Shown: piece by piece, positions 13,158 through 28,009 of the stretch
Layout: every line of letters begins with the position of its first letter
Numbering within the stretch: the stretch's first letter is position 1
Origin: Escherichia coli
GTDB taxonomy: Bacteria > Pseudomonadota > Gammaproteobacteria > Enterobacterales > Enterobacteriaceae
Length of the DNA: 64,000 bases
Reading direction: 5' to 3' (one strand)
Assembly (NCBI GenBank): GCA_009729775.1
Contig: GCA_009729775.1_4081.1
Notes under the pieces: generated by a model
Databases searched by the model: none
Told to the model about the DNA's origin: nothing
What the model saw: only the letters and a program-made list of their open reading frames with translations
Position numbers and translations under genes: made by a program

Positions 13158-13172
13158 TTTAGTTTATCCTAT

Positions 13173-14039: not shown

Positions 14040-14095
14040 TTTAATTTCTCTCTTTTAGTTAGGAGGGGAACCATTCCCCTGCCTTGATGTAAACT

Positions 14096-14123
14096 ATTAT
14101 ACAGTACTAAGATACTTTGTCAA
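14096..14123 (-). promoter_or_regulatory. sigma70-type early promoter (minus strand)
   Basis: TTGACA-N16-TATAAT on minus strand. Confidence 0.6.
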
Positions 14124-14126
14124 TAC

Positions 14127-14261
14127 TTATTTGTTTTCTTTTCGTAATTTCTTTTCAGCTTCAACTACATTCTTATTTGTGCAAACTACTTCATCGGATA
14201 AATCTAACTTCCATCCAGACAGGGGTTTGGTTTGTTTCTTTGCTGCTTTGTTCGCTTTCAT
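14127..14261 (-). CDS. small Lys-rich protein (44 aa), not in ORF track
   Basis: Hand translation MKANKAAKKQTKPLSGWKLDLSDEVVCTNKNVVEAEKKLRKENK; AAAGGA RBS; own promoter at 14292-14319. Confidence 0.5.
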   Translation of the reverse strand: MKANKAAKKQTKPLSGWKLDLSDEVVCTNKNVVEAEKKLRKENK

Positions 14262-14291
14262 GATGTTTCCTTTTTAATTAAGATGTAAACT

Positions 14292-14319
14292 ATTATACAG
14301 TACTAAGATACTTTGTCAA
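14292..14319 (-). promoter_or_regulatory. sigma70-type early promoter (minus strand)
   Basis: TTGACA-N16-TATAAT, identical cassette to 14096-14123. Confidence 0.6.
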
Positions 14320-14328
14320 TCTATTTTA

Positions 14329-14529
14329 TTAGATAGTTTCCCATTTCATGTTACCCGCTTTACGCTGTGAAACAGGAATAAACATGTTATTAATGTTACT
14401 AATATAACCGACCTGTAAGTCACGCTGTGAACCATATGCCCGACTTGCTGCATTTTTAGCACCGCGTTCTGATTTATAAACGCCGCTGGATACTGTAAAG
14501 CCTACTACACCGAAAGTAAAATGTTTCAT
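14329..14529 (-). CDS. hypothetical early protein (66 aa)
   Basis: AGAGGA RBS; ORF track. Confidence 0.6.
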   Translation of the reverse strand: MKHFTFGVVGFTVSSGVYKSERGAKNAASRAYGSQRDLQVGYISNINNMFIPVSQRKAGNMKWETI

Positions 14530-14595
14530 TTTGTATTCCTCTTTGTGGTTGATGTAAGTATTATACTCGTTTACTTTCTATTGTCAATCTTTTTT

Positions 14596-14668
14596 ATCAG
14601 GGGAGTTTTTCGTATGTCTTACTCCTGGACTACTTAACGGGGTTACTTGTTTCGTTCCCCGTCCTGAT
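14596..14668 (-). promoter_or_regulatory. two-hairpin leader element between tandem promoters (copy 1)
   Basis: CAGGGGAG...CTCCTGG and AACGGGG...CCCCGTC stems; near-identical copy at 25181-25256. Confidence 0.5.
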
Positions 14669-14723
14669 GTAAAACATTATACTTGATTCTAAGTACAATG
14701 CAAGTACTTTTTAAAAATAGTTT

Positions 14724-14888
14724 TCACTTACTCATATTAACAGGCTTAAACGGTGGCAATGTAAGATCATGCGGGGTTAAACTGTCATGCTTTGCCCACA
14801 TACCAGAATCCCTACGGAATAATACCTTATTGTTTTTTATACGATAAAAGTTACCATTATCAGTGTTTTTATACCATACCATTTTCAT
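14724..14888 (-). CDS. small protein (54 aa), not in ORF track
   Basis: Hand translation MKMVWYKNTDNGNFYRIKNNKVLFRRDSGMWAKHDSLTPHDLTLPPFKPVNMSK; AGGAG RBS. Confidence 0.45.
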   Translation of the reverse strand: MKMVWYKNTDNGNFYRIKNNKVLFRRDSGMWAKHDSLTPHDLTLPPFKPVNMSK

Positions 14889-14976
14889 TTACTCCTGGTT
14901 ATGTCGTTATTAAACATTATACGGGGTTATAGATAGTTTGCAATTAGTTTTTCAGTACTAGCCACCAGCATATAAT

Positions 14977-15004
14977 AGATACATTTATGCACCCTGTGGG
15001 CTGA
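14977..15004 (+). repeat. conserved 28-bp intergenic motif (copy 3)
   Basis: AGATACATTTATGCACCCTGTGGGCTGA. Confidence 0.7.
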
Positions 15005-15032
15005 TTTGTTTCTATGCGTATATAATAGCAAA

Positions 15033-15061
15033 GGGACTGACCGGAGTCAATCCCTTTTTTA
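15033..15061. terminator. stem-loop cassette GGGACTGACCGGAGTCAATCCC plus T-run
   Basis: Same cassette as 9740-9779. Confidence 0.55.
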
Positions 15062-15068
15062 ATTCTTT

Positions 15069-15218
15069 TTAAACTTGTTTTGGGTTGCGATATGTGATAG
15101 CGTTCGGGTACATTTGTTTAATGTTATTCCATGCCTGGTTAACATTGTAACCACTTGAGCGAATCAGTTGGTTACTACCGACACCTTGAAACACTACTTC
15201 GAATAAGAATTCTTTCAT
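15069..15218 (-). CDS. small protein (49 aa), not in ORF track
   Basis: Hand translation MKEFLFEVVFQGVGSNQLIR...; GAGGTGA RBS; ATGA overlap with upstream ORF. Confidence 0.45.
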   Translation of the reverse strand: MKEFLFEVVFQGVGSNQLIRSSGYNVNQAWNNIKQMYPNAITYRNPKQV

Positions 15219-15388
15219 GCTTTCACCTCGCGATCTGCTTTACCTTTACGCCACGCTGTTGCTAATTGTTCGCGTTGCCATAAGTCGAGTGATACGTAAA
15301 GTTTTGCATTATCACCCTTCGGATACTCGCCAGTAGTACCAATCCGATAAAACAGATCTTTCAGTACTGATAATTCCACCTGGATCAT
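15215..15388 (-). CDS. small protein (57 aa), not in ORF track
   Basis: Hand translation MIQVELSVLKDLFYRIGTTGEYPKG...; AGGAG RBS; coupled to flanking ORFs by ATGA overlaps. Confidence 0.45.
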   Translation of the reverse strand: MIQVELSVLKDLFYRIGTTGEYPKGDNAKLYVSLDLWQREQLATAWRKGKADREVKA

Positions 15389-15477
15389 TGTATTACTCCT
15401 GATTGTGTTAGTACTTCTACGATGGCATGAATGATCATAAGTACAGCTAACACAACAATCATCGGATTCATTTGCAT
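15385..15477 (-). CDS. small hydrophobic peptide (30 aa), not in ORF track
   Basis: MQMNPMIVVLAVLMIIHAIVEVLTQSGVIQ; AAGGAG RBS 7 nt upstream. Confidence 0.35.
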   Translation of the reverse strand: MQMNPMIVVLAVLMIIHAIVEVLTQSGVIQ

Positions 15478-15496
15478 AAGCTGTACTCCTTATATA

Positions 15497-15709
15497 TTAA
15501 TCTTTCAGCCAATGATCTTGAATGAATTTTTCACAGAATCCCTGTTTCATAGATTCTAACAGGCGTTCACGGTGAGCGGCGGCATATTGCTCAGTACTAT
15601 GCGTTACGCCAGGTTGATAACGTGAAACACCGTCTGGTCCGATATATTGAACATCCCACGGTTTTTCGTTAGTATCAGACCATTTACGAACGATTAGTTG
15701 ACCTTGCAT
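15497..15709 (-). CDS. hypothetical early protein (70 aa)
   Basis: AGAGGA RBS; ORF track. Confidence 0.6.
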   Translation of the reverse strand: MQGQLIVRKWSDTNEKPWDVQYIGPDGVSRYQPGVTHSTEQYAAAHRERLLESMKQGFCEKFIQDHWLKD

Positions 15710-15792
15710 GTTTCTTTCCTCTTAGTGGGGAGAATCATTTCTCCCCTTCATGTAACTTATTATACAGTACTAGATTACATTGTCAATAGTTT

Positions 15793-16116
15793 TTATTCAC
15801 CTTGTTTGAATATAGTTTTCTCCATTGATTCCATGATTGCAACCAATACAGCATGGATCTCACTTAACGCGGCATCACTAAAAGCATTAATGAATAGGCA
15901 ATCATTCTCGCGAATATTTTTAATGTACTTATCAGCAGTGGTTGCGAATTCATTCAACGGCAGATCAAATGCTTTATCCCATAATGGATGGCGTAACTGT
16001 AACAGTACTGGATTATCACGGTCACCAGGTGAGAAAGTGCCTGTAATGAAACATACACCAGGGATACTTTCGAATTGACAACGAACTTCTTTTGTGATAG
16101 TAGTATGAATATACAT
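15793..16116 (-). CDS. hypothetical early protein (107 aa)
   Basis: AGAGGA RBS; ORF track. Confidence 0.6.
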   Translation of the reverse strand: MYIHTTITKEVRCQFESIPGVCFITGTFSPGDRDNPVLLQLRHPLWDKAFDLPLNEFATTADKYIKNIRENDCLFINAFSDAALSEIHAVLVAIMESMEKTIFKQGE

Positions 16117-16143
16117 TTATTTTTATCCTCTATTAAATTAATA

Positions 16144-16332
16144 TTACAGTTTATGAATCAATTCTTTATCCAAGCGATAGCGAACATTATTGATTGTAAC
16201 TGCATTGTTTTTAATGCTACGCTGTACAGGTCCACCAGCAATAACAAACGTTGCCTTATTGCCCCGAACGATGATAGCACTTCCAGGATTACCGAAATCA
16301 TCTTGTACTAAAATGCTTGATAAGTTTTGCAT
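16144..16332 (-). CDS. hypothetical early protein (62 aa)
   Basis: AAGGAAAG RBS; ORF track. Confidence 0.55.
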   Translation of the reverse strand: MQNLSSILVQDDFGNPGSAIIVRGNKATFVIAGGPVQRSIKNNAVTINNVRYRLDKELIHKL

Positions 16333-16411
16333 TTGTCTTTCCTTGTAGTGGGGAGAACTATTCTCCCCTTCATGTAAACAATTATACAGTACTGAAAACT
16401 AATTGCAAGTA

Positions 16412-16768
16412 CTATGATAAAATCATTATAGGATATTCACTATCAATCAGTACTTCAAAACCAAAACTTTCATACCATTCTTTAAGATTAAATGAGTTAT
16501 CTTCTCCCGTATCGCATTCTAAGATGATACAATCTGAATCATCGGCCGCATCAATAAAGGCATTCATTAATTCAGTACCTTCACCGTTACCGCGATTATC
16601 GGGATCAACATAAAGAGAATCAATAAACGCTACACGATCATAATCAAGATCTGGTGCAACAATGCCACGTTTAACAAACCAGTACTGCAATTGTGCTACT
16701 TTGCCTTGTACTTGATAGCCAGTGATCTCACCATTGTCTGTAGTACGCGTGATATGTTGTATACCCAT
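16412..16768 (-). CDS. GNAT-family N-acetyltransferase-like protein (118 aa)
   Basis: RGNGEGTELMNAF matches the acetyl-CoA-binding motif A pattern R-x-x-G-x-G of GNAT enzymes. Confidence 0.5.
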   Translation of the reverse strand: MGIQHITRTTDNGEITGYQVQGKVAQLQYWFVKRGIVAPDLDYDRVAFIDSLYVDPDNRGNGEGTELMNAFIDAADDSDCIILECDTGEDNSFNLKEWYESFGFEVLIDSEYPIMILS

Positions 16769-16831
16769 GATTTCAATCCTCAGTTAAGATATAAAATATT
16801 ATACACTAACTAACAGTACTGTCAATACTTT

Positions 16832-17089
16832 TTATCTCATAGATCTATGCCAACAATTACGCGGTTGACGTTTAAAAATACTATCATGATCCTCCTGGCA
16901 AGTTATGCAGTACTTACATCCCTTAACGGCCTGGCGACGTTTCTCAGGGATTATATCACCGCAGTCGAGGCAATGTATCAGTGATTCTATTTGTGCGTTA
17001 ATTTGCGTTCTAGCGTGGTTAACAGCGGCCTGAATCACTGCGTTAATCTCGTCTTGCTCGGCCCCATCTTTCGTGAATCCTACAGCCAT
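16832..17089 (-). CDS. TraR/DksA-type C4 zinc-finger protein (85 aa)
   Basis: C-x2-C ... C-x2-C (CLDCGDIIPEKRRQAVKGCKYCITCQ) with RR, characteristic of the TraR/DksA zinc finger. Confidence 0.55.
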   Translation of the reverse strand: MAVGFTKDGAEQDEINAVIQAAVNHARTQINAQIESLIHCLDCGDIIPEKRRQAVKGCKYCITCQEDHDSIFKRQPRNCWHRSMR

Positions 17090-17334
17090 TATTTTAACCT
17101 CATTATAAAAATACTATAGTACTGTAATGCGACAATAATATTACTTGTTCTTACTTTTTCCAATCCACATGATACAACATATTCATCCCCATATGTTCGA
17201 AACGAAACACCATGAAAATTTTTATACACTTGCACTTCTAATCATAACCTTTTGTCTAACCAACTGCGTAGAATTATACTACTTTACGCAAATTGATCAA
17301 GTATTGATCAGATCATTTTTTGATCAATATTATA

Positions 17335-17363
17335 CAGTTACATTTGTGCACCCTATGGGTTAG
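17335..17363 (+). repeat. conserved 28-bp intergenic motif (copy 4, variant)
   Basis: CAGTTACATTTGTGCACCCTATGGGTTAG. Confidence 0.6.
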
Positions 17364-17420
17364 TGCCTTGTGTCCGGCTTATGTACTTATTATACAGTAC
17401 TTGATGATATTGTCAATAGT

Positions 17421-17618
17421 TTATTTTAATTTTTTTCTGTCATTGATTAATGCTTTCAGTACTATACTAATAACTTGCAATGATTCATCAATGACTATAA
17501 AATTATTTTCTTTCATTAGATGATAGTTACCATTGATTGTATATTCTAATGAGTACTGTTTACGTTTAATTTTTGATAATGTATCAATTTGTTTTTGTAC
17601 TGATTTCATGCTAATCAT
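17421..17618 (-). CDS. hypothetical protein (65 aa)
   Basis: ORF track only; weak RBS. Confidence 0.35.
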   Translation of the reverse strand: MISMKSVQKQIDTLSKIKRKQYSLEYTINGNYHLMKENNFIVIDESLQVISIVLKALINDRKKLK

Positions 17619-17723
17619 TGTTAAACGTCCTGTAATGCATTCTAACGAGATAAACGGTTTAGTACTGGCATTGTATAGGGTAAATGATTAAAGCCCACCA
17701 GCGTTAACCAGTGGGCTATAATC

Positions 17724-17867
17724 TTACATCTTGCGGATAATCTTAACAGTATCTTTCACCGATTTACCGTCTTGCTGACATTGTTCGATCATCGCGTATT
17801 GTTCTGCGGTCAGATCCTCGCCAGTTTTTGCCAGTACTGCGTCGATGAATGAATCCAGTGCGATCAT
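17724..17867 (-). CDS. small protein (47 aa), not in ORF track
   Basis: Hand translation MIALDSFIDAVLAKTGEDLTAEQYAMIEQCQQDGKSVKDTVKIIRKM; AGAGAG RBS. Confidence 0.45.
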   Translation of the reverse strand: MIALDSFIDAVLAKTGEDLTAEQYAMIEQCQQDGKSVKDTVKIIRKM

Positions 17868-17966
17868 TTTATTTCTCTCTTAGGTTAAGTTAACTACTGT
17901 TGATAAAAGTTATTATACAGTACTATCAAACATTGTCAATAGATTTAATAGTACTGGTAATATATT

Positions 17967-18146
17967 TTAGCGGTAATCGTCGTATGCTTTATTAACCTGG
18001 CGAATGTAACTTTCAAAGGCTTCGTCTACCGTTTCATACTCCCGAACATAATCACCATAGGAAACTACATACATCCCTTTTTGATCTTCAAACGTCATGA
18101 TGATAGAATCCAGTCCGATGATTTCAGTTTTTGCGATAATAGCCAT
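17967..18146 (-). CDS. hypothetical early protein (59 aa)
   Basis: Start adjusted to MAIIAKTEII... Confidence 0.55.
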   Translation of the reverse strand: MAIIAKTEIIGLDSIIMTFEDQKGMYVVSYGDYVREYETVDEAFESYIRQVNKAYDDYR

Positions 18147-18237
18147 TTTAGTATTCCTTAAATTAATATGCGTTGTCTTGATAAAAGTTATTATGCCAGT
18201 ACTATCAAACGTTGTCAATAGTACTGTGATAATATTT

Positions 18238-18450
18238 TTAGTTAATGATAGTCAGTGTAAAATTGTAATCCCCTGCCTGGTATAGTACTTTATCGCCGAA
18301 CGTGCCAACACGTTTCATATTGCAATAGATACCCATAACATTTTTTACATCTTTGATATTCCGAACGCCAGTGATATCCTTGTTGAAATTTTCATGATCA
18401 GAAAATAAAACTTGTTTTGCATTTTTCAGTACAGTGCAGATATTAGCCAT
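18238..18450 (-). CDS. hypothetical early protein (70 aa)
   Basis: AGAGAG RBS; ORF track. Confidence 0.6.
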   Translation of the reverse strand: MANICTVLKNAKQVLFSDHENFNKDITGVRNIKDVKNVMGIYCNMKRVGTFGDKVLYQAGDYNFTLTIIN

Positions 18451-18550
18451 TTCGATTTCTCTCTGTTAGTAGGGAAGTACTGTTACTTCCCGTGCCTTGA
18501 TGTAAACTATTATACAGTACTATAATCTATTGTCAAACTATTTTTTAATA

Positions 18551-18892
18551 TTATTCAAAATCTTCTGGACCGGACTGATAATCATCCTCACCGTATGCAC
18601 TTTCTAACTTCTCGCCAGTGTAATCATCAGTTAGTGAGTCATCCTCATAGTTCACGTCTACGCCCGTGATGTAAAACTGGCTATCGTCTGGATCATTGAA
18701 ATTAATTTTCTGAATGTTTACAATAACTGTATTGATACCCAGGACACAGCCATCAGCCGTTACAAAGTACTGATATTTTTCACATCCACCACTATTGAAA
18801 CCGTAATTGATTTCGGCCCGACCATCATTTAAACGCAGTGCCTGAGCGATGATTTCGTTTTCAAAGTTAGATTGAGCAATTGCAATAGTCAT
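18551..18892 (-). CDS. hypothetical acidic protein (113 aa)
   Basis: AAGGAAA RBS; acidic C-terminus. Confidence 0.6.
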   Translation of the reverse strand: MTIAIAQSNFENEIIAQALRLNDGRAEINYGFNSGGCEKYQYFVTADGCVLGINTVIVNIQKINFNDPDDSQFYITGVDVNYEDDSLTDDYTGEKLESAYGEDDYQSGPEDFE

Positions 18893-19025
18893 GATTCGTT
18901 TCCTTATTACCAGGGGAAACCGTTTCCCCTTGCGATGTAAAACATTATACGCCTATTGATATAGTTTGCAAGTACTTTTTATCAAATACTTTAAAATAGT
19001 TTTCAGTACTCAATCATTATACAAT

Positions 19026-19053
19026 AGATACACTTATGCACCCTGTGGGCTAG
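19026..19053 (+). repeat. conserved 28-bp intergenic motif (copy 5)
   Basis: AGATACACTTATGCACCCTGTGGGCTAG. Confidence 0.7.
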
Positions 19054-19087
19054 TGAGCTATCTCTCAATGAATACATAATAGCAAAA

Positions 19088-19115
19088 TGGCTGACCGAAG
19101 TCAACCACTTTTTTT
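19088..19115. terminator. stem-loop cassette GGCTGACCGAAGTCAACC plus T-run
   Basis: Variant of the cassette that recurs at 45-60 kb. Confidence 0.55.
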
Positions 19116-19252
19116 CATTTATTTTTAGCTTTTAGAATCGCCGCCTTTCGCGTCATGCCTTGCTTGATGTACTCCTTTACTTTCGCTTTACGTGCTTTCG
19201 CTTTATCTGCTTTCGTTTTAGGAGTACTGTAAATTAAACCGTTAGGATTCAT
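19115..19252 (-). CDS. small Lys/Ala-rich protein (45 aa), not in ORF track
   Basis: Hand translation MNPNGLIYSTPKTKADKAKARKAKVKEYIKQGMTRKAAILKAKNK. Confidence 0.4.
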   Translation of the reverse strand: MNPNGLIYSTPKTKADKAKARKAKVKEYIKQGMTRKAAILKAKNK

Positions 19253-19342
19253 TTAAATCACCATAAAGAATAGATAGGTTACTAACAATGCCGCCAGTAC
19301 TGCACCGACCAGGGCCGAACTATAGTAAGCTAATGATTTCAT
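19253..19342 (-). CDS. small hydrophobic peptide (29 aa), not in ORF track
   Basis: MKSLAYYSSALVGAVLAALLVTYLFFMVI; start overlaps stop of 19339-19491 (ATGA). Confidence 0.3.
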   Translation of the reverse strand: MKSLAYYSSALVGAVLAALLVTYLFFMVI

Positions 19343-19491
19343 TTTTTAGCCTGAAAGTAATGTTTAATTTGTGCGGCGGTCAGTGCACAATTACGCAGGA
19401 AGTTTTCTGTATAACTTTTACGAGTACTGAAAGAGTACTGACCTTTCCCGTTACCGATAGTAACATCAAACCGAGCGTTATATTGTTTCAT
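19339..19491 (-). CDS. hypothetical early protein (50 aa)
   Basis: Start adjusted to MKQYNARFDV... Confidence 0.5.
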   Translation of the reverse strand: MKQYNARFDVTIGNGKGQYSFSTRKSYTENFLRNCALTAAQIKHYFQAKK

Positions 19492-19559
19492 TTTGTTTCT
19501 CCTAGTATCGGGGAGAACCATTCCCCCCCTCTATGTAAACAATTATACAGTACTGAAAA

Positions 19560-19880
19560 CTAATTGCAAGTACTTTCTAAGTAATGTTTATAAGCTGAAT
19601 CAACCACTCTTTCGATAACATACGCTAACGGCACGTATCCAACTACATGACTACAATAAAAAGGACTACGATTAGAATCATCGTATGCAAATACTTTTTC
19701 AGGATCTGCATCAATCACATACATATTAACCTTTAAGATGTCTATCTTATCCTGTACAGTAAGCATATTACGCCGCCTTATCAGTACTGGCAACCGGACG
19801 GATACGGGCCATTTCATGGGCTTGTTCCACACTGTAACGCTCATAAAGGCGGCATTCTTCCGGTGTAGGAACAGCATCAA
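19560..19880 (-). CDS. hypothetical protein (up to 106 aa; start uncertain)
   Basis: Track ORF begins at a TTG; internal ATG at 19766 has a GGCGG-type RBS. Confidence 0.45.
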   Translation of the reverse strand: MMLFLHRKNAAFMSVTVWNKPMKWPVSVRLPVLIRRRNMLTVQDKIDILKVNMYVIDADPEKVFAYDDSNRSPFYCSHVVGYVPLAYVIERVVDSAYKHYLESTCN

Positions 19881-19989
19881 TACGTTTCATTGGTTTAATG
19901 ATGCTTTCAACTTCATTCAGTACTTGATTAACGTTCATGGTATAATCCCCAATATAAGCGGCCTAAATCGACCGCTAACGATGTTTTGA

Positions 19990-20259
19990 TTAATAGGTGT
20001 ATGGTTGACGCTCAAACAATGATTGCACGTTGTACGCCCCGCTAATGGGCTTTGCTGGCAAATCAATTTTATATTGTTCACGCTTAAAAATAATAAAACG
20101 GCAATTGTTTTTAACATCAAAATTGATTGAACGTTCCAATAGCTTTCCTTCGTGTACAAATACAAGATAACCGCTTGCTACTTGTTTTGTAGTACTGGTT
20201 GCAACCATTGACCGACGAACATGAGTACCTGCATCGATTAAAGTACTGATATTTTTCAT
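19990..20259 (-). CDS. hypothetical protein (89 aa)
   Basis: AGAGGA RBS; ORF track. Confidence 0.6.
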   Translation of the reverse strand: MKNISTLIDAGTHVRRSMVATSTTKQVASGYLVFVHEGKLLERSINFDVKNNCRFIIFKREQYKIDLPAKPISGAYNVQSLFERQPYTY

Positions 20260-20339
20260 TTTACTATCCTCTTAATTTGATTTAATTTCTTTCCCCTATG
20301 CAGACACTATATCAAAGTATCTGCATAAAGTAAAGCTAA

Positions 20340-20684
20340 TTAAAGATCTTTTTTGCGTTTAACATCAGTTACCGAACTGTAAACAGTGATATTATTGTCA
20401 CGGCAAAAACGGGAAAGATAAGAACCGCGTAAAAACTCTTTATCTTCCATATTAATAACCTTGCTAAATTCTTCCATTGCTACAGTGTCAAAGTGATCCC
20501 CGTATCCATATTGGAACGGCACGTTTACTACTTCAATAAAATTACCATCAATTTCTACGTCTACACTTAAAGAGAAATAAGTGTTACCATATGAAGCCTG
20601 GAACCAACGCCGAGCGGCAATATGTACAACTTCAACAGAAGACAGGTTGATATTTTGTGCTGAGATAGTGTTGATGTTAGCCAT
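20340..20684 (-). CDS. hypothetical protein (114 aa), paralog of 13716-14039
   Basis: GNTY, YGYG, VKRKKD motifs. Confidence 0.65.
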   Translation of the reverse strand: MANINTISAQNINLSSVEVVHIAARRWFQASYGNTYFSLSVDVEIDGNFIEVVNVPFQYGYGDHFDTVAMEEFSKVINMEDKEFLRGSYLSRFCRDNNITVYSSVTDVKRKKDL

Positions 20685-20770
20685 TTTAATTTCCTCTTAG
20701 TTGTCTTGATAAAATCTATTATGCCAGTACTATCAAACTATGTCAATAGTACTGTGATAATAATTTTACT
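20685..20770 (-). promoter_or_regulatory. 85-bp promoter/RBS cassette, duplicated at 20980-21065
   Basis: Near-identical sequence including TTGACA-type promoter, RBS AGAGGAAA and ATG. Confidence 0.6.
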
Positions 20771-20978
20771 TACTTTGCTTTGATGCTTTATGTTGTGCAA
20801 CTGCCATCACTACATCAGCACGAACAAAGTTAGCAACCGTATCAGTATAATATTTGATTGCATCGTCAATATCTGCGAACATCCGATACATTCCGCACCA
20901 TGATACTTTATAACCCGCTTTCACTTGTTCCAGTTTAACCAGTGAATTGTTTACTTTGATTTTTGTAATGATAGCCAT
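20766..20978 (-). CDS. hypothetical protein (70 aa)
   Basis: AGAGGAAA RBS. Confidence 0.6.
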   Translation of the reverse strand: MAIITKIKVNNSLVKLEQVKAGYKVSWCGMYRMFADIDDAIKYYTDTVANFVRADVVMAVAQHKASKQSK

Positions 20979-20979
20979 T

Positions 20980-21065
20980 TTTGTTTCCTCTTAGTTGTCT
21001 TGATAAAATCTATTATGCCAGTACTATCAATCTATGTCAATAGTACTGTGATAATAATTTTACTT
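20980..21065 (-). promoter_or_regulatory. 85-bp promoter/RBS cassette, second copy
   Basis: Direct repeat of 20685-20770. Confidence 0.6.
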
Positions 21066-21203
21066 ACTTTTTGCTTTCTTTATTGCTTCCACCTGGTCGG
21101 CCCACTCTTTACCCCATACTTGAGCGTTATAGTGATACTGACAAAGAGCAACGCCCCGTTTCAAACCAGTGATAGATTTTTTACCACATTGACAAGTTTT
21201 CAT
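21060..21203 (-). CDS. small Cys-rich protein (47 aa), not in ORF track
   Basis: Hand translation MKTCQCGKKSITGLKRGVALCQYHYNAQVWGKEWADQVEAIKKAKSK; AAGAGGAAA RBS; possible Zn-binding C-x-C...C-x-Y-H. Confidence 0.45.
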   Translation of the reverse strand: MKTCQCGKKSITGLKRGVALCQYHYNAQVWGKEWADQVEAIKKAKSK

Positions 21204-21288
21204 TTTTAGTTTCCTCTTAGTGGGGAGAATCATTTCTCCCCTTGATGTAATGTATTATACTTTATCCGATTTACTTTGCAAGTACTTT

Positions 21289-21516
21289 TTAGTTTAATTC
21301 ATCCAGGCATAAGATACGATCTACGCCGAGATCCGTTAAGCTAATGGTTGGCACTTGATAGGTTTCAATGTATTCTACACTAGCCCACTGACCGAACTCA
21401 TTCACCGCCCAGGTATTCATTGCAAAATGTAATTCCGCACCTTTCTTATTAGTAATTACAGCAACAGTAGAAGAATTGCCAGTAGTACCAGATACGCGAG
21501 TGATTACGATAGCCAT
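21289..21516 (-). CDS. hypothetical protein (75 aa)
   Basis: AGGAA RBS; ORF track. Confidence 0.6.
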   Translation of the reverse strand: MAIVITRVSGTTGNSSTVAVITNKKGAELHFAMNTWAVNEFGQWASVEYIETYQVPTISLTDLGVDRILCLDELN

Positions 21517-21586
21517 TGTTTTGATTCCTATTCAGTAGTTGATGTATGTATTATGTCAGTACTTAAAACTATTGTCAAACTATTTT

Positions 21587-21739
21587 TTAAAGACTATCTA
21601 CGATAGCTGCCGTTTCAATAATAGACTTACCTTTTTTTGAACATGCAATAACTGCTTTAAATTCCTTTGATGACCATTCTTTTTTACTGCATACTAACAT
21701 TACTTGCATAGTGAAACAATCCAGTTCATAAGTATTCAT
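21587..21739 (-). CDS. small protein (50 aa), not in ORF track
   Basis: Hand translation MNTYELDCFTMQVMLVCSKKEWSSKEFKAVIACSKKGKSIIETAAIVDSL; GAGGA RBS. Confidence 0.4.
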   Translation of the reverse strand: MNTYELDCFTMQVMLVCSKKEWSSKEFKAVIACSKKGKSIIETAAIVDSL

Positions 21740-21960
21740 CTTTAAATCCTCAGTTAGTTAAGGTGTCTTGCCTTGATGTAACTAATTATACGCCTTTCTC
21801 TTAATCGTGCAAGTACTTTTTATTACTTTTTGCAAAATACTTTAAACGCTCTCAATCGCATTCTAACGGCCTTAACTCCACCAGCTAGGGCGATGCATCA
21901 GATAATCAGTTTAATGCGTTAGAATCGATTCTATGAGGTGCTGACGGTCTGGAATGCAAT

Positions 21961-21993
21961 AAAAACAAAAAAGCCCACTGCTTATAGTGGGCT
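21961..21993 (-). terminator. rho-independent terminator
   Basis: AGCCCACT-loop-AGTGGGCT hairpin with long U-run on the minus strand, after the stop of 22015-22497. Confidence 0.7.
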
Positions 21994-22014
21994 AGTGATT
22001 CAGTACTTTAAATG

Positions 22015-22497
22015 TTATGCTTCAATTTTGCGGTGAGATTCGATCCATTCCTCGCGAGTCATACCGCTTTCTTTGATAGCATCCAGTACTACCGCAATGC
22101 AGTTACCGCGTACAGGAATCAAATGTTCTTCCCCGTTATCAAGGACAACCGTAACACGTTCTTGAATCCATTTTTTAGGCTTAGATTCCGGCTTATCTTC
22201 ACCGTACTTAACCGCCAGGGCTTTATGTGCCATTTCAATAACCACTTCCAGATCTAAACCAGACACCGCCGCCTGAATACTTTCTATTGTTGCTTGCAGT
22301 TCTGCTTCACGGGCTTTTTTCTGTTCTTCCAGTTCTGCTACCTTTTTGGCTTGTAGTTCTTTCGCTTCACTGTAAGCAATGTTAAAATTGTTGCGTACTG
22401 CTTTCATGGTATCATTATCCAGGTCAGCCAGCAATTCAGCAGCAATCACAGTATCGTTAGAAATCAGTGCTTTCAGAAATGATTTTACATTAGCCAT
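22015..22497 (-). CDS. putative H-NS-like nucleoid-associated protein (160 aa)
   Basis: Start adjusted to MANVKSF... (GAGGA RBS); N-terminal coiled-coil-like region, C-terminus LDNGEEHLIPVRGNCIAVVLDAIKESGMTREEW parallels the H-NS DNA-binding core [34 protein letters not shown]. Confidence 0.4.
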   Translation of the reverse strand: MANVKSFLKALISNDTVIAAELLADLDNDTMKAVRNNFNIAYSEAKELQAKKVAELEEQKKAREAELQATIESIQAAVSGLDLEVVIEMAHKALAVKYGEDKPESKPKKWIQERVTVVLDNGEEHLIPVRGNCIAVVLDAIKESGMTREEWIESHRKIEA

Positions 22498-22684
22498 TTT
22501 ATAAATCCTCAATTAAAGTTTAAGTTAGTTTATCAAAGTTTGTTTGACGTGTCCAGTTTTTCATTCGACTTACTGGCGGTCTACTTAATGTTCCCCGTCT
22601 TGATGTAATACATTCTACGCTTTTCCCTGGTAATGTCAACTACTTTTTTAAAACTATTTTCAAAGTATACCAGTACTACGATAA

Positions 22685-22720
22685 TACAAAAACAAAAAAG
22701 CCCACTGTTTAAGGTGGGCT
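22685..22720 (-). terminator. rho-independent terminator
   Basis: AGCCCAC-loop-GTGGGCT hairpin plus U-run on minus strand after 22738-23037. Confidence 0.7.
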
Positions 22721-22737
22721 AGTGATTCAGTACTAGA

Positions 22738-23037
22738 TTATAAACAGTTAATTACTCCGGTGTGCGTTACTTTCTCAGTATCCATCACAGTGACCGAACC
22801 GCGTTTAGTACTGGCATCATAATAAATTGTTGTGCTACCGTTTTTGTCTTCTTCATGGAACGGGCCGTTTTTAAATGCTTCCGGCTGGATCTCTAAATCC
22901 TTTAATACAATCTCGCCAGTTCTTTCATCGGTCATTGCAACAGTGCACTGAATGAATTTTTCACTACTTACATCTAATGACGCATTAACAGCGAAAGAGG
23001 AAACAGATAAAGCCAGGGCGATGATTGCAATTTTCAT
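22738..23037 (-). CDS. secreted small protein with signal peptide (99 aa)
   Basis: N-terminus MKIAIIALALSVSSFAVNAS; AAGGATA RBS. Confidence 0.6.
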   Translation of the reverse strand: MKIAIIALALSVSSFAVNASLDVSSEKFIQCTVAMTDERTGEIVLKDLEIQPEAFKNGPFHEEDKNGSTTIYYDASTKRGSVTVMDTEKVTHTGVINCL

Positions 23038-23121
23038 TTGATTATCCTTAGTTACCAGGGGGAACCGCTCCCCCTTGCTATGTAAAATATTATACAGTAC
23101 TAAAAACTAATTGCAAGTACT

Positions 23122-23358
23122 TTATGATTTTTTATAAAACATTTCGGCAGTGATATTTTTACCCGTTGGCTGTACTTTATCCAGAATTTTTTGATGCCCT
23201 GGCCGTCCAAATGAATATGATCCGTAAACCGTAAACCAGTAGTTACCCTCAGTGTTTACATGTACAGCACAATAGGGAACGCCCCGCGATTCATCACTAG
23301 TAAAGTGTGCTACCGTTCCCGTTACATTCGAAGTCGTTGATTTGATTTGTTCAAGCAT
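23122..23358 (-). CDS. hypothetical protein (78 aa)
   Basis: AAGGAATA RBS; ORF track. Confidence 0.6.
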   Translation of the reverse strand: MLEQIKSTTSNVTGTVAHFTSDESRGVPYCAVHVNTEGNYWFTVYGSYSFGRPGHQKILDKVQPTGKNITAEMFYKKS

Positions 23359-23466
23359 TTTCTTATTCCTTAGTTACCAGGGGAACCGCTCCCCTATGCA
23401 AAACATTATACGCGTTTAAAAACTATTGTCTAGTATTTTAATAAAAAGTATTTGAAAAATAGTTGT

Positions 23467-23495
23467 TGACAAGTGCATCCAGTACTGGCATAATA
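23467..23495 (+). promoter_or_regulatory. plus-strand sigma70-type promoter driving a short non-coding transcript
   Basis: TTGACA-N17-CATAAT on the plus strand; no plus-strand ORF follows. Confidence 0.45.
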
Positions 23496-23519
23496 CTTAC
23501 ATAAAGACGAGATAGTCAC

Positions 23520-23548
23520 TAACCCACAGGGTGCATAGATCCGTCTAT
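23520..23548 (-). repeat. conserved 28-bp intergenic motif (copy 6, inverted orientation)
   Basis: Plus strand reads CTAACCCACAGGGTGCATAGATCCGTCTA, reverse complement of the core. Confidence 0.65.
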
Positions 23549-23565
23549 TAAATGATTCAGTACTG

Positions 23566-23593
23566 CAAAATAAAGGGGATCAATTGATCCCCT
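23566..23593 (-). terminator. rho-independent terminator
   Basis: Perfect palindrome GGGGATCAATTGATCCCC followed by U-run on minus strand after 23599-23820. Confidence 0.7.
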
Positions 23594-23598
23594 CTGTA

Positions 23599-23820
23599 TT
23601 ACTTAGTAAGGTATAAACAGAAGTCACCTTTATTTGCTACGCCGCCAGTGTAACGCGATGAATAGTTAGAAACGTCCTGGACTTCTGCTATTACCAGTGT
23701 ATCATCATTCAATTCGTCGCAGAAGCAAACGGCTGGATCTTTTACGCCGATATTGTCGGCATGTTCCCGCATAGATTTAACCAGTGCTTCAAGTTGGGAA
23801 AGAGTAGTGATATTAGCCAT
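23599..23820 (-). CDS. hypothetical protein (73 aa)
   Basis: Start adjusted to MANITTLSQ...; GAGGAAAA RBS. Confidence 0.6.
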   Translation of the reverse strand: MANITTLSQLEALVKSMREHADNIGVKDPAVCFCDELNDDTLVIAEVQDVSNYSSRYTGGVANKGDFCLYLTK

Positions 23821-23907
23821 TTTATTTTCCTCATTACCAGGGAGAACCATTTTCTCCCCTCTATGTAAACCATTATACAGTACTAAAAACTAATTGCAAG
23901 TACTTTT

Positions 23908-24111
23908 TTAATTTAATTGCTTTAAAACATACTCAAAGACACCACGCACATCATTGATCATCGCCTGGCGGTTAGCAGGTAACGCATCAGGATCGCCACT
24001 ATCCCAGGCATTGATAAAACTCCCCAAATCATGATAGATTTTATTCTGTAAGCCGATCAACTGCAATTCTTTTTCTTCAAGCTCTTTGATACGTTCAATT
24101 AAATCACTCAT
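23908..24111 (-). CDS. hypothetical protein (67 aa)
   Basis: Start adjusted to MSDLIERIKELEEK...; AAGGA RBS. Confidence 0.55.
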   Translation of the reverse strand: MSDLIERIKELEEKELQLIGLQNKIYHDLGSFINAWDSGDPDALPANRQAMINDVRGVFEYVLKQLN

Positions 24112-24128
24112 TATATAATCCTTAGTAC

Positions 24129-24410
24129 TTAATTGTAAGATCCGCAACGGTCGCAGTAGTGCCCCTCGTCATCGTCAACGAATTGACCAACGAAATTATC
24201 TACTTTCGCTTTCAGGTTATTATAATCGTTTTCTACTTCCTTTAAACGCTTCTGGTAGTATTCCAGTGCTTTAAGATATGCCGCATCAGTAGTTTTCTCC
24301 TGCATAGCTAAATTCATGCCACGCGTTTCATCATAAAGCCAATAACCATCAGTACATTGGCTAATAGACAATGACTTGCTTAACACTGTATAGTTAATTA
24401 CTTTGCTCAT
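24129..24410 (-). CDS. hypothetical protein (93 aa)
   Basis: Start adjusted to MSKVINYTVL... Confidence 0.55.
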   Translation of the reverse strand: MSKVINYTVLSKSLSISQCTDGYWLYDETRGMNLAMQEKTTDAAYLKALEYYQKRLKEVENDYNNLKAKVDNFVGQFVDDDEGHYCDRCGSYN

Positions 24411-24500
24411 TAGATAACCCTCAGTAAAGGCGGGAACCACTCCCCGCCTCGATATAAAGTATTATACGCTTTTAAACTTAGTATGCAAGTACTTTTTAAA

Positions 24501-25112
24501 TTAATATGCGATAGATTCTACTACATCGTCGATAACGTTAAATTGATATTCGTTACCCTCAATCAGTCCTACAATGTTTTCAGTAGTAAACTGGTCTTCA
24601 TAAGCATTTTCTAAATCACGGTACAGCTTACAAGATAATTCTCGGATAGTATCAGTCAGTAAGTTTTCCAGATCCTCAGCTAATGCAGCCTGTTTTACAG
24701 TTAAATCAGTGTAGCGAGTATCAACGCAACCGCCTACCGTGTTTTCGTGAGCGTAGCGTGATTGGGAACGTTCTACACTCATTTCCAAATCATCTTCGTT
24801 CAACAGGTGACGGATGGAACGATATTTCGTTAACGCCTTAACCTTGCGTAAAAACTTCTCAGCGTCAACGTGGTCAGTACTGATTGATGCACCGTCACCT
24901 TGCGACCAAAAACCACTGTATTGCAATTCAGCTTCATCTATGCCGTATTCTGGCAGTACTGTTTCTTTATAGTATTCCAGTACTGATTCAGCAAAGAAAT
25001 TATCCTCACTTGCACGTTCCCGATCCCGAACCAGTTCGATAGCCGCCGCTTGTTGTTCTGCGTTCAGTTCAGAAAAATCCATAACGAAAGTAGTAGTAGT
25101 GATAGTTTTCAT
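24501..25112 (-). CDS. hypothetical acidic protein (203 aa)
   Basis: GAGGG RBS; ORF track. Confidence 0.65.
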   Translation of the reverse strand: MKTITTTTFVMDFSELNAEQQAAAIELVRDRERASEDNFFAESVLEYYKETVLPEYGIDEAELQYSGFWSQGDGASISTDHVDAEKFLRKVKALTKYRSIRHLLNEDDLEMSVERSQSRYAHENTVGGCVDTRYTDLTVKQAALAEDLENLLTDTIRELSCKLYRDLENAYEDQFTTENIVGLIEGNEYQFNVIDDVVESIAY

Positions 25113-25180
25113 TTTGTAACCCTCATTCAGTAGTTGATGTAAGTATTATACGCTTTTAAAAACAATTGTCAAACTATTTT

Positions 25181-25256
25181 ATCAGGGGAGTTTTTCGTGT
25201 GCCTTACTCCTGGGCTACTTAACGGGAAGTTACTTATTTCGTTCCCCGTCCTGATG
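25181..25256 (-). promoter_or_regulatory. two-hairpin leader element between tandem promoters (copy 2)
   Basis: Near-identical to 14596-14668. Confidence 0.5.
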
Positions 25257-25325
25257 TAAAACATTATACGCCTTTAAACATAGTTTGCAAGTACTTTTTG
25301 AAAATAGTTTTTATCTCTTTCATAT

Positions 25326-25353
25326 AGATACATTCCCGCACCCTATGGGCTAT
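25326..25353 (+). repeat. conserved 28-bp intergenic motif (copy 7)
   Basis: AGATACATTCCCGCACCCTATGGGCTAT. Confidence 0.65.
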
Positions 25354-25411
25354 CGCCTTGTGTCCGGCTTGTAAGTATTATCTCACTAAGCCGGATAACG
25401 GTCAAGTACTT

Positions 25412-25678
25412 TTATTCAAGTACTGCAATCTTTTTAGTACTGTATACAGTAACGCGGTTGCCCTTTCGGTCGTGCTTTATTTCTACCACTCGACGCGATA
25501 CACTATCAGGACTTTTTAAAACCGATCTCCAGTACTGAATTGATCGGGCTGTACTTTGCTTTACTACGGCCCAACGTTTACCACGTTCAGAATGTACGCC
25601 CATATCTTTAAACGTCGCCCCGTCCTGGCGTGCGGCAATCCGAGCAAGTTCACGCGTTGCAAAGTATATAATATTCAT
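25412..25678 (-). CDS. hypothetical protein (88 aa), paralog of 13221-13616
   Basis: Start adjusted to MNIIYFATRELARI...; shared IKHDRKGNRVTVYS block. Confidence 0.6.
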   Translation of the reverse strand: MNIIYFATRELARIAARQDGATFKDMGVHSERGKRWAVVKQSTARSIQYWRSVLKSPDSVSRRVVEIKHDRKGNRVTVYSTKKIAVLE

Positions 25679-25760
25679 GCTGTTACCCCTATCGTTGTTG
25701 TATAAAAGAAATCTATTATAAAGTACTATCACCGTGCAATAGTACTTTTAATCTATTCTC

Positions 25761-26000
25761 TTACATTCCAACCATCGCCGCACGGATCGCAGTAGTGCTA
25801 TACTTAAAGCCGTCCGGTGTTTTATCTTGTCCAGTCTGTTCTAAAAATAGCATCATATGACGGGCCGCATCATTACGATTAGTGTTAGCGGCAATAAAGT
25901 CCTGGGCCAACCGGTATAATGATTCGTCGTTATTAATCCAAAGGCTTACATTCCATTGAGTTTTGTTTTTGTGACCTAAGAACATTTTTGATTTAGCCAT
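25761..26000 (-). CDS. hypothetical protein (79 aa)
   Basis: Start adjusted to MAKSKMFLGHKN...; AGAGGA RBS. Confidence 0.55.
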   Translation of the reverse strand: MAKSKMFLGHKNKTQWNVSLWINNDESLYRLAQDFIAANTNRNDAARHMMLFLEQTGQDKTPDGFKYSTTAIRAAMVGM

Positions 26001-26093
26001 TTTTTTAATCCTCTTATATAGTGGGGAACTATTCCCCACCTGATGTAAAACATTATACGCTTTTAAACTTAGTTTGCAAGTACTTTATTAAAC

Positions 26094-26456
26094 TTATTCG
26101 TAAATCTTTCCACTATCAGCCCATACCAGGAAACGAGGCATATTATCCCATGCATCTTGTTTTAAATTTAAACCGTGTAATACTTCTGTACTTTCCATTC
26201 CTGGTACTGGTTTACTATACACCGCGAACATTTCGCCCATGTACTGATAAGCCATCGTTAAATCACTGGCGATCATCTTATGAATCATCGCATCAAGCAT
26301 CACGGTAGCGGCGTATTGTTCACGCTTAAGCGGTAACATTGCAATAAGTTCCCGATAAGCTGAAATGTGAATTTTTACCGTTTCAGCCGGAAGATCTTTC
26401 ATCTCTTCACGGAAGTTAACCAGGTTAGCAATAATTTTAGTGATTTGAGTAGCCAT
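26094..26456 (-). CDS. hypothetical protein (120 aa)
   Basis: Start adjusted to MATQITKIIANLV...; AGAGAG RBS. Confidence 0.6.
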   Translation of the reverse strand: MATQITKIIANLVNFREEMKDLPAETVKIHISAYRELIAMLPLKREQYAATVMLDAMIHKMIASDLTMAYQYMGEMFAVYSKPVPGMESTEVLHGLNLKQDAWDNMPRFLVWADSGKIYE

Positions 26457-26762
26457 CGTTTTAATCTCTCTTAAAGTGTAGCGGGAAGTGTTCCCGCTCT
26501 CGATGTAAAACATTATACGCCTATCGGGATAGTATGCAAGTACTTTCTACTAATACTTTTAAAATAGTTTTCTTTCTATATAGGAGTACTATCATTCAGT
26601 ACTGAATCAACCAAATCACTACTATACCCCATAAAACGGCCTCAGCCGCTTTCTAACGCATTAATACACCTAAGCTATACATTTGCACCGCCACCAGCTA
26701 ACCAGGGCTTTATAGGCCGTTTAAGGGCGTTAAATTATTTTCAATTATTTTGTTTTTAGCTA

Positions 26763-26790
26763 TTGACTCAGTACAAAAAAAGCGTATAAT
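26763..26790 (+). promoter_or_regulatory. plus-strand sigma70-type promoter in non-coding hub
   Basis: TTGACT-N16-TATAAT; no ORF downstream. Confidence 0.45.
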
Positions 26791-26977
26791 TACTACATAG
26801 ACGCGAGAAAGCGGATACCCCAGGGGGTGGGAAGATCCGTCCAAAATTCATATAATTTAAAAAGGATACACTCCCGCACCTTAGCAGGTCATAGCACTTT
26901 CTCAGTACTGAATCATAGTACCATAGTACGCCCCTGGATGGCAAGCAAATTAATTAAAACTTTTTACATCCAGGGTA

Positions 26978-27005
26978 TTGCTTTATTTTTCCAGTACTGT
27001 ATAAT
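26978..27005 (+). promoter_or_regulatory. plus-strand promoter-like element in non-coding hub
   Basis: TTGCTT-N16-TATAAT followed by motif copy 8. Confidence 0.35.
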
Positions 27006-27029
27006 AGTTTCATCAAGTCGAGAAAGACT

Positions 27030-27057
27030 CAAGCCCACCGGGTGCATAGTTGTATCT
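27030..27057 (-). repeat. conserved 28-bp intergenic motif (copy 8, inverted orientation)
   Basis: Plus strand reads CAAGCCCACCGGGTGCATAGTTGTATCT. Confidence 0.65.
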
Positions 27058-27102
27058 AAAATTCAGTACTGAATTATTTTTTAAAAATATCCATCCAGGC
27101 GG

Positions 27103-27131
27103 TTGACATATCCATCAAAAAGATAGATAAT
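27103..27131 (+). promoter_or_regulatory. plus-strand sigma70-type promoter reading into the iteron block
   Basis: TTGACA-N17-GATAAT; followed by GGGGAAACCATCCCC hairpin. Confidence 0.45.
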
Positions 27132-27224
27132 GATTCCAGATTCAGAAAAATCTAACTCCAGATACTGCGGGGAAACCATCCCCACGCGGTAGGGGAACTA
27201 TTGGAAAAAACAAAATAAAAATTT

Positions 27225-27400
27225 TGATTTAGCCGTCTGTACTTCCAGACGTGTAACCATCTAGCCGTTTAGCCGTCCAAACGTCTAGCCATCCAGCCGC
27301 CTAGAGGGATAGCCATCTTTACTTCCAGACTTCTGGAGGGCTAGACATATCTACGTCCAAAATCCACCCAGGGTAACTACGCCCAAAATCCGTCAGTACT
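27225..27400. repeat. iteron-like cluster of short direct repeats
   Basis: TAGCCGT/TAGCCAT repeated at least 5 times, ACTTCCAGAC twice, CCAAAATCC twice, within about 180 bp of non-coding DNA. Confidence 0.6.
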
Positions 27401-27942
27401 ATACTATAGATCTATCTTTTGAAAGGGAGTATTCAGTACTGCCACAATAGCCCTCACTGTTACTGTAGGAGGATGAAGACTATCATGTAGTACTGAATAC
27501 TGTTAGAGGGAATCCACCAGCTTGTGCTGGTGGCATAATGCATTAGATTAAAATCAGTACTGACACCATTCTGTTAATATCAGTACTGTTTATATTACGA
27601 AAAAAGAGGTTATAAAAAGATGTACCACCCATAGGAGGAACTATCCTTTCAGTACTGTCTCACGACAGGAGGTAGAGTGAATGAATTGTTTGCGGCAACT
27701 CATCTCTCTATGTAGAACATTATACAGTACTGAATCATAATGTCAATAGCTTTCTTTCATTATTCAGTACTGAAATCGTATAATCTGTATCGCTACAAAA
27801 CTCATTATATCCCACAAATCCTATATGTCCCAACGTAAATTTCAACTTTCGAAGATCCAACTTTTATTTCATAGGTACTCCAAATTTTTTACGATCCAGA
27901 TTTAGGATGGAGTACTAACCAACTTTTTGCTGGAGCCTCAAG

Positions 27943-27990: not shown

Positions 27991-28009
27991 GTGAAAGTAA
28001 TAATTCAGT

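Follow-up and report, generated by a model that had tools for sequence, protein, structure and literature searches.

The systems closest to the locus reported here are the promoter-early stem-loops (PeSLs) of T4-type phages, which were described by Arbiol et al. 2010 (PMC2839356) and Comeau et al. 2014 (PMC4122927). PeSLs are composites of about 100 bp, in which an AT tract contains the stop codon of the upstream gene, and which also include a sigma-70 promoter, a stem-loop, a Shine-Dalgarno (SD) site, and a start codon. The position of the stem-loop varies, in that it may surround the -35 or follow the -10, and it is often made of a G-run and then a C-run (PMC2839356, PMC4122927). ORF192 of RB49 lies between two PeSLs, whereas phi1 has one PeSL (PMC2839356, PMC4122927).

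The stretch of DNA that we analyzed (64,000 nucleotides, hereafter the window) matched, with an identity of about 90%, Asteriusvirus jumbo coliphages including A4, 121Q, PBECO4, phAPEC6, and G17. Its cassettes were similar to the T4-type PeSLs in anatomy, in their location (before small genes without known function, within a hyperplastic region), and in that relatives differ by single genes, with two flanking cassettes in one phage and one in the other. They differed in that the phage is a 350-kb Asteriusvirus distant from T4, that the array fills a long direct terminal repeat, whereas T4-type PeSLs occupy gaps between the core modules of circularly permuted genomes, that most cassettes carry AGTACT boxes, and that the modules are common to Vequintavirinae and phi92-type phages. 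For the PeSLs of RB49 and phi1, experiments demonstrated promoter activity, terminator activity, and mini-circles, whereas the cassettes of the window are known from sequence. 121Q, PBECO4, RaK2, and jumbo phages are absent from the two PeSL papers (PMC2839356, PMC4122927), two recent Asteriusvirus genome papers (including PMC13070987) do not mention promoters, and the searchable literature held nothing relevant on PeSL shuffling in Asteriusvirus. RaK2-like phages share only some T4 core genes (PMC5259590). Judged by their composition, the cassettes of the window are PeSL-type elements in a new lineage, outside the T4-type myoviruses to which the original description was limited.

Hendrix and colleagues reportedly described the morons of lambdoid phages as independent promoter-gene-terminator units whose insertion separates two genes that adjoin each other in a relative. 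Likewise, one gene studied here, g70, forms together with its promoter an extra predicted unit that separates direct neighbors of phAPEC6, G17, and fEgEco12. Morons, however, are usually isolated insertions with unrelated flanks, whereas here a whole region consists of promoter-gene units and two cassette copies bound the insertion. The pre-early region of phage T5 holds many small genes of the host-takeover type with strong sigma-70 promoters, inside a long direct terminal repeat. Like this region, the array has small genes with sigma-70 promoters and lies in a long terminal repeat, but there is no sequence relationship, and the two-step DNA transfer is a feature of T5. We know of no description of the T5 pre-early region as a shuffling array of repeated cassettes.

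We consider it probable that the two paired cassettes examined below, A and B, are members of a large family of composite cassettes in the Asteriusvirus terminal repeat, which undergoes PeSL-type modular shuffling at the shared cassettes.

The cassette array in the terminal repeat

The array was located as follows.

8287 to 28110, minus strand: cassette array, about 55 small genes in about 19.8 kb

The array coincides with the direct terminal repeat (about 20 kb) of Asteriusvirus genomes. Position 1 of fEgEco12 corresponds to 28110 of the window and the end of the fEgEco12 repeat to about 8287, which is also the position where the record ends of G17, WPEC3, and E9.1 map. The repeat of fEgEco12 was determined to be 20,993 bp by PhageTerm and restriction digests (PMC13070987), and terminal repeat sizes of Asteriusvirus are found in PMC13070987, PMC11895373, and PMC6563267. 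Since the window is continuous through both 8287 and 28110, its source record would be a collapsed or permuted assembly.

Thirteen perfect minus-strand sites (12/12, TTGACA-16/17-TATAAT) were found in the array. A predicted promoter of the sigma-70 type of its own, matching at least 9/12, was present for 34 of the 50 called array genes, 19 of them at 11/12 or better. At least one AGTACT box was found in 25 of these 34 promoters, and in 21 array cassettes the -10 was separated from the SD by a G-run/C-run hairpin. The homologous region of G17 has annotated ARNOLD terminators; Rfam and tRNA scans of the whole window gave no matches. In the related phage CBB, sigma-70-type promoters were predicted upstream of short unknown genes in a region suspected to be early (PMC5259590). 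The original prediction called the present region early as well, and we infer the same, as plausible, from the sigma-70 consensus promoters and the location in the direct terminal repeat. Each small gene would be its own transcription unit, read by the host RNA polymerase right after DNA entry. A cassette occupies the interval between two successive small genes, including the stop codon of the first and the start codon of the second; its AT-rich tract is followed by a predicted host sigma-70 promoter close to the consensus, then by a stem-loop or palindrome, an SD site, and the ATG.

Besides the cassettes, an element of about 115 nt was present in four minus-strand copies (9650-9800, 11575-11725, 14935-15085, and 18975-19125). 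It contains a 12-bp hairpin (AAAGGGATTGACTCCGGTCAGTCCCTTT) around a TTGACT -35, a T-run, TATTAT, and a conserved GCCCACAGGGTGC stretch. The fourth copy had two compensatory base-pair changes, and the class with the 12-bp stem received a terminator-like flag. Rfam gave no match to the element, which may combine a terminator with a promoter or represent a small RNA. Immediately beyond the terminal repeat, six minus-strand genes of 65-72 aa (6953-8189) are joined by 4-nt start/stop overlaps and lack individual promoters; the similarity in size suggests a tandem family. This stretch contains almost no AGTACT.

Cassettes A and B and the genes behind them

The features of the locus and the two other palindromic promoters of the array are listed below.

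20685 to 20776, minus strand: cassette A, promoter and 5ʹ-UTR of g114
20741 to 20746, minus strand: -35 of cassette A (TTGACA), with a 17-nt spacer to the -10
20718 to 20723, minus strand: -10 of cassette A, in the extended -10 TGgCATAAT
20726 to 20731 and 20748 to 20753, minus strand: AGTACT boxes of cassette A
20692 to 20698, minus strand: SD of cassette A (AAGAGGA), with the ATG of g114 at 20682-20684
20766 to 20768, minus strand: stop codon of g70, inside the AT tract of cassette A
20340 to 20684, minus strand: g114, 114 aa, phrog_6246 (a PHROG without known function), behind cassette A
20979 to 21070, minus strand: cassette B, promoter and 5ʹ-UTR of g70, with the same parts as A
21035 to 21040, minus strand: -35 of cassette B
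21012 to 21017, minus strand: -10 of cassette B
21020 to 21025 and 21042 to 21047, minus strand: AGTACT boxes of cassette B
21060 to 21062, minus strand: stop codon of g57, inside cassette B
20766 to 20978, minus strand: g70, 70 aa, phrog_35559 (a PHROG without known function), between cassettes B and A, optional
21060 to 21203, minus strand: g57/g47 (g57 in the text), small and Cys-rich, upstream of cassette B, optional
21204 to 21290, minus strand: hairpin-type cassette for g57, which in PBECO4 and E9.1 precedes g70 instead
18147 to 18248, minus strand: cassette C, a third copy (about 80% identical), predicted to drive g59, with a 5ʹ-UTR module unlike those of A and B
17967 to 18146, minus strand: g59, the gene behind cassette C
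10338 to 10413, minus strand: fourth palindromic promoter with AGTACT arms, upstream of an 85-aa gene (10080-10337)

The original prediction that a near-identical stretch is present twice was confirmed: 99 of 103 bases were identical between 20674-20776 and 20968-21070, which form direct repeats with an offset of 294 nt. Within the first interval that it gave, 20685-20770, 83 of 86 bases were identical to the partner (mismatches at 20688, 20689, and 20737); the second, 20980-21065, was one base out of register. The similarity ends abruptly at about 20777 and about 20673, namely two codons inside the upstream genes and a few codons inside the downstream genes. When the 100 nt upstream of the 50 called array genes were compared in all 1225 pairs, A and B were the closest pair (97/103), followed by a runner-up with 87/103, and the median was 60%. 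The likeness of A and B exceeds chance and the background of the cassette family.

Read from 5ʹ to 3ʹ on the minus strand, the two cassettes have the sequence AAAGTAAGTAAAATTATTATCA-CAGTACTAT-TGACA-TAG(T/A)TTG-ATAGTACTG-GCATAAT-AGATTTTATCAAGACAAC-TAAGAGGAAA-(TT/CA)AAA-ATGGCT. Each begins with an AT-rich tract in which the upstream gene ends (its last two codons and stop codon), continues with TTGACA, 17 nt, and the extended -10, and ends with a leader of about 27 nt, AAGAGGA, and ATGGCT 7 nt on. AAAGTAAGTAAAATTATTAT is an AT-rich stretch on the 5ʹ side of the -35 in both. The predicted promoter of A and of B matched the sigma-70 consensus at 11 of 12 positions, in addition to the extended -10 TGgCATAAT. 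The hairpin-type cassette at 21204-21290 is ordered as AGTACT, TTGCAA, 16 nt, TATAAT, GGGGAGAAatgaTTCTCCCC, and the SD stretch ACTAAGAGGAAAC.

The whole promoter of A and B lies inside a long imperfect palindrome that spans the -35 and the -10, with CAGTACTAT and ATAGTACTG as the core arms. Folded as a single strand and compared with shuffles, the palindrome gave a dG of -20.4 kcal/mol in cassette A (z = -4.6) and -20.3 kcal/mol in cassette B (z = -5.1). No U-run follows the stem, and it was not flagged as a terminator in the scan. Among the loci compared, the arms were nearly invariant, with a compensatory change only in one variant copy (W70). Two AGTACT boxes, 22 bp apart, bracket the -35 in each of A, B, and C, and the arms may represent either a base-pairing hairpin or two copies of an AGTACT protein site, both of which fit. 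A LexA-box reading of CAGTACTGTATAAT was rejected, as the right half-site had no match. A stem-independent pattern scan of IMG/VR for further cassettes of the A/B type returned 121Q itself only.

The copies do precede two different genes as predicted, g114 and g70, which belong to different PHROG families (6246 and 35559). The idea of a cassette "used twice", if taken as tandem duplication of a unit, did not hold, because g70 is unrelated to its neighbors; no similarity was found between g70 and g114, g57, or g59. We also considered g70 and g59 as paralogs, both of which start with MAII-K, but BLASTP gave no alignment and the PHROGs differ, the first few codons alone being shared. For the ten genes around A and B, Pfam gave no family, and nine of the ten matched only PHROG families of unknown function. 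g70 was found in only 21 phage records, three of them of phages of about 137-145 kb including the Vequintavirinae phage W70, and the g114 allele was found in 142 records, mostly of 145-150-kb phages of the phi92/Phapecoctavirus/Justusliebigvirus type. The genes behind A, B, and C all start with ATGGCTA (20670-20684, 20964-20978, and 18132-18146; Met-Ala-Ile/Asn-Ile) and are mutually unrelated, indicating that the shared sequence reaches a few codons into the genes. The common start could be a recombination scar or a result of selection for efficient initiation.

Two pairs of dispersed paralogs had been predicted in addition, involving the following genes besides g114.

13716 to 14039, minus strand: g107, 107 aa, phrog_6246, paralog of g114, behind a hairpin-type cassette
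13221 to 13616, minus strand: 131-aa protein, phrog_8127, paralog of 25412-25678
25412 to 25678, minus strand: 88-aa protein, phrog_8127, paralog of 13221-13616

Both pairs were recovered by alignment. g107 and g114 were 31% identical (E = 8e-11) with GNTY, YGY, and VKRKKD invariant, and the phrog_8127 proteins were 34% identical with a 45-aa gap (E = 8e-20) and shared HDRKGNRVTVYS. Their use as evidence of cassette-mediated duplication, however, was not supported: the identity of 31-34% is between proteins, no DNA similarity was found, and the cassettes upstream are of unlike types. g107 is preceded by a hairpin-type promoter (14040-14130), and g114 by the palindromic type (20685-20776). The pairs are either old paralogs or the result of separate acquisitions. 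Among relatives, the g114 slot was also found replaced by a third member of the phrog_6246 family, with breakpoints at the conserved 3ʹ end coding VKRKKDL and in the cassette.

AGTACT in the window and in a related genus

AGTACT was found 260 times in the window against 22.4 expected, and its extended form CAGTACTG 58 times against 0.8 expected. The expectation was taken from dinucleotide shuffles and codon-level tests; an order-4 Markov model was uninformative, as the sub-words are themselves enriched. The terminal repeat showed an excess of about 20-fold, and 28-64 kb one of about 9-fold. In relatives, AGTACT was retained more often than control hexamers, both in genes (83% vs 67%) and in intergenic regions (92% vs 73%). 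In long ORFs, Ser-Thr was encoded as AGT-ACT 59 times (17.9 expected), Val-Leu as GTA-CTn 51 times (20.5 expected), and Tyr as TAC in 20 of 23 fitting contexts (8.1 expected). Synonymous codon choice thus creates AGTACT in all three frames. AGTACT was also the top over-represented hexamer in 50 kb of core genes (1-50000) of Klebsiella phage RaK2, which belongs to a different genus (119 vs 12.0).

We take AGTACT to be a clade-wide DNA signal. Possible roles are the site of a clade-specific DNA-binding protein, a self-marking signal, or a recombination/nicking site. It is quite unlikely, in our estimate, that CAGTACTG and AGTACT are sites of a putative DNA-binding or nicking protein of the RaK2-like clade that would mark phage DNA throughout the genome and, at the promoters of the terminal repeat, both switch early transcription and seed cassette exchange; if this protein-targeted reading were true, the array would be a regulated gene-exchange platform, beyond a passive substrate of homology. 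The searchable literature contained no description of AGTACT or CAGTACTG in these phages.

Ten copies of CAGTACTG lie in 26597-27772, inside a non-coding stretch of about 1.6 kb with which the terminal repeat physically ends, and one more lies just past the repeat end at 28122-28129. Outside the repeat, AGTACT pairs also occur as stems of terminator-like hairpins, in the form of GCCAGTACT-loop-AGTACTGGC and then a T-run, at the positions below.

32495, 36178-36190, 38652-38665, 39937, and 42279-42294: hairpins with AGTACT stems, outside the repeat

Gene exchange among relatives

At the locus of A and B, relatives were arranged in the following ways, where gX is the gene behind the last cassette.

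g75, hairpin cassette with g57, B with g70, A with gX: the window, A4, and 121Q
g57, single cassette with gX, without g70: phAPEC6, G17, and fEgEco12
hairpin cassette with g70, cassette with gX, without g57: PBECO4 and E9.1

gX was g114 in the window, A4, phAPEC6, and E9.1, and a 107-aa allele, 34-35% identical to g114, in G17, PBECO4, 121Q, and fEgEco12. Nearly all combinations of g57, g70, and g114 or the 107-aa allele were found among six relatives, and these three binary characters (presence of g57, presence of g70, and the allele of gX) therefore assort almost freely. In phAPEC6, one stretch of 106 bp aligned with both A and B, which is the signature of two cassettes versus one. In PBECO4 and E9.1, the junction of the hairpin cassette and g70 lay in a 13-18-bp overlap at the ribosome-site stretch ACTAAGAGGAAAC. 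From the seven genomes compared, the g70 event may have been either an insertion or a deletion.

Nucleotide identity also varied from gene to gene: g114 was 98.8% identical to A4 and phAPEC6, g70 was at best 90.1% identical (A4), and g57 was 97.9% identical to 121Q. The T/A difference in the spacer between A and B was swapped in A4 relative to the window, indicating that A and B are still exchanging sequence. The 5ʹ-UTR module of g114 has a short leader in the window and a longer leader in A4. The cassettes, too, are mosaic.

Breakpoints of homology were then collected across the array from chained BLAST matches of 8200-27000 of the window against six relatives. Forty of the 48 distinct breakpoints fell into intergenic cassettes or were no more than 12 nt away from the end of a gene, a zone that makes up 35.6% of the sequence (binomial p = 1.4e-11), and most of the remaining eight were within about 25 nt of a gene end. 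At nine indel loci, the matches on both sides of the junction overlapped by 45-106 bp, namely a duplicated cassette, while about eight further junctions overlapped by 18 bp or less, which is microhomology and not homology of cassette length. The closest relative switched 29 times over 49 adjacent gene pairs. Identity of the array to any single relative ranged from about 77% to 100%, or the gene was absent (45 of 350 gene-by-relative cells had no match with seven relatives), and the best relative covered at most 61% of 7000-29000. The anatomy of the cassettes, the polymorphism among relatives, the breakpoint positions, and the mosaicism are direct observations. The cassette-mediated shuffling of the original prediction was upheld in that cassettes are the boundaries at which genes were gained, lost, or swapped (40/48 breakpoints, six relatives), but not with the paralog pairs as its evidence.

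A second case with two promoter cores was found in the array.

14086 to 14320, minus strand: two promoter cores, 14086-14124 and 14282-14320, 39/39 identical
14127 to 14261, minus strand: 44-aa Lys-rich gene between the two cores

This gene was absent from all seven relatives, and would be either a very recent gain of a module or a new gene.

As to the mechanism, what we infer about promoter activity, the timing of expression, and the recombination pathway is based on sequence. The similarity of 45-106 bp among cassettes would serve as portable homology for recombination-dependent replication, joining genomes or positions in register, and promoter-gene modules would thereby be inserted, deleted, or replaced with the genes left intact. 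The pair of A and B would then be the footprint of a module insertion, or of the joining of two arrangements through a cassette common to both. Unequal crossing-over within the ACTAAGAGGAAAC stretch, between a genome with g57, cassette, and gX and one with g70, cassette, and gX, would give exactly the arrangement of the window in a single event. An inserted circle carrying g70 and one cassette would give the same product. Ongoing exchange between A and B would keep the copies at about 96% identity.

The cassettes could instead be bystanders of random illegitimate or microhomology recombination, of which only the products with intact genes and promoters survive, with their similarity explained by constraint on a strong promoter and ribosome site and by occasional gene conversion. 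We regard such an explanation by selection only as unlikely. Random recombination followed by loss of broken genes would likewise enrich breakpoints at gene boundaries, sequence is conserved throughout the cassette family in the promoter hexamers, the SD, and the initial transcribed stretch TTACATCAA, and about eight junctions overlap by just 1-18 bp, usually at the SD/ATG or a stop codon. These microhomology junctions leave room for cassettes that merely mark the sites of tolerated exchange. On the other hand, nine junctions have duplicated stretches of 45-106 bp, and the match of A and B at 97 of 103 positions includes spacer and leader positions that differ freely among the other cassettes (median of 60%), for which functional constraint does not account. 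The spacer difference swapped in A4 also points to homologous exchange. The long duplicated junctions and the A/B identity of about 97% therefore favor cassettes that cause the exchanges.

Exchange might also begin at the boxes themselves, if a phage protein recognizing the AGTACT palindrome nicks or pairs DNA there. The authors of the PeSL study left "homologous or site-specific recombination" open (PMC4122927), and here two AGTACT boxes lie 22 bp apart around the -35 in A, B, and C, with at least one box in 25 of the 34 array promoters, and the hexamer is 10-20-fold over-represented and under selection. AGTACT is, however, equally enriched inside genes and in terminator stems, where breakpoints do not cluster; 46 of the 110 array boxes but only 8 of the 48 breakpoints are inside genes. 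With no candidate enzyme identified either, we find site-specific exchange very unlikely. Tandem duplication of a 294-bp unit with later divergence of its coding part, or an assembly artefact, would fit the direct repeats 294 bp apart, but is extremely improbable: g70 has no similarity to g114, g57, or g59, the likeness stops sharply at the cassette edges, the same arrangement is present in the independently sequenced A4 and 121Q, and g70 stands behind a different promoter in PBECO4, E9.1, and W70.

If PeSL-type shuffling at shared cassettes is true, the model would extend from T4-type phages of 160-250 kb to jumbo phages of 350 kb, and the long terminal repeat would be the main site of gene turnover in the latter. 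This would explain the strain-specific mosaic of small unknown genes that makes up about 20 kb of these genomes. The array would also provide a set of about 35 predicted strong and compact natural promoter/RBS parts for E. coli.

Promoter-gene modules would further circulate between unrelated coliphage lineages, namely Asteriusvirus, Vequintavirinae, and phi92-type phages. Such circulation is relevant to the therapeutic use of these phages and to the mining of small early genes for host-takeover or anti-defense functions. In W70 (Vequintavirinae, 137 kb), about ten genes of the window recurred in another order, at 70-94% nucleotide identity and with matching cassette types, and the A-type cassette after its g70 preceded a different gene. 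A 78-aa gene of the window (23122-23358) was 94.3% identical in DNA to W70 and 80.4% identical to 121Q, an Asteriusvirus, which points to recent exchange between unrelated phage lineages.
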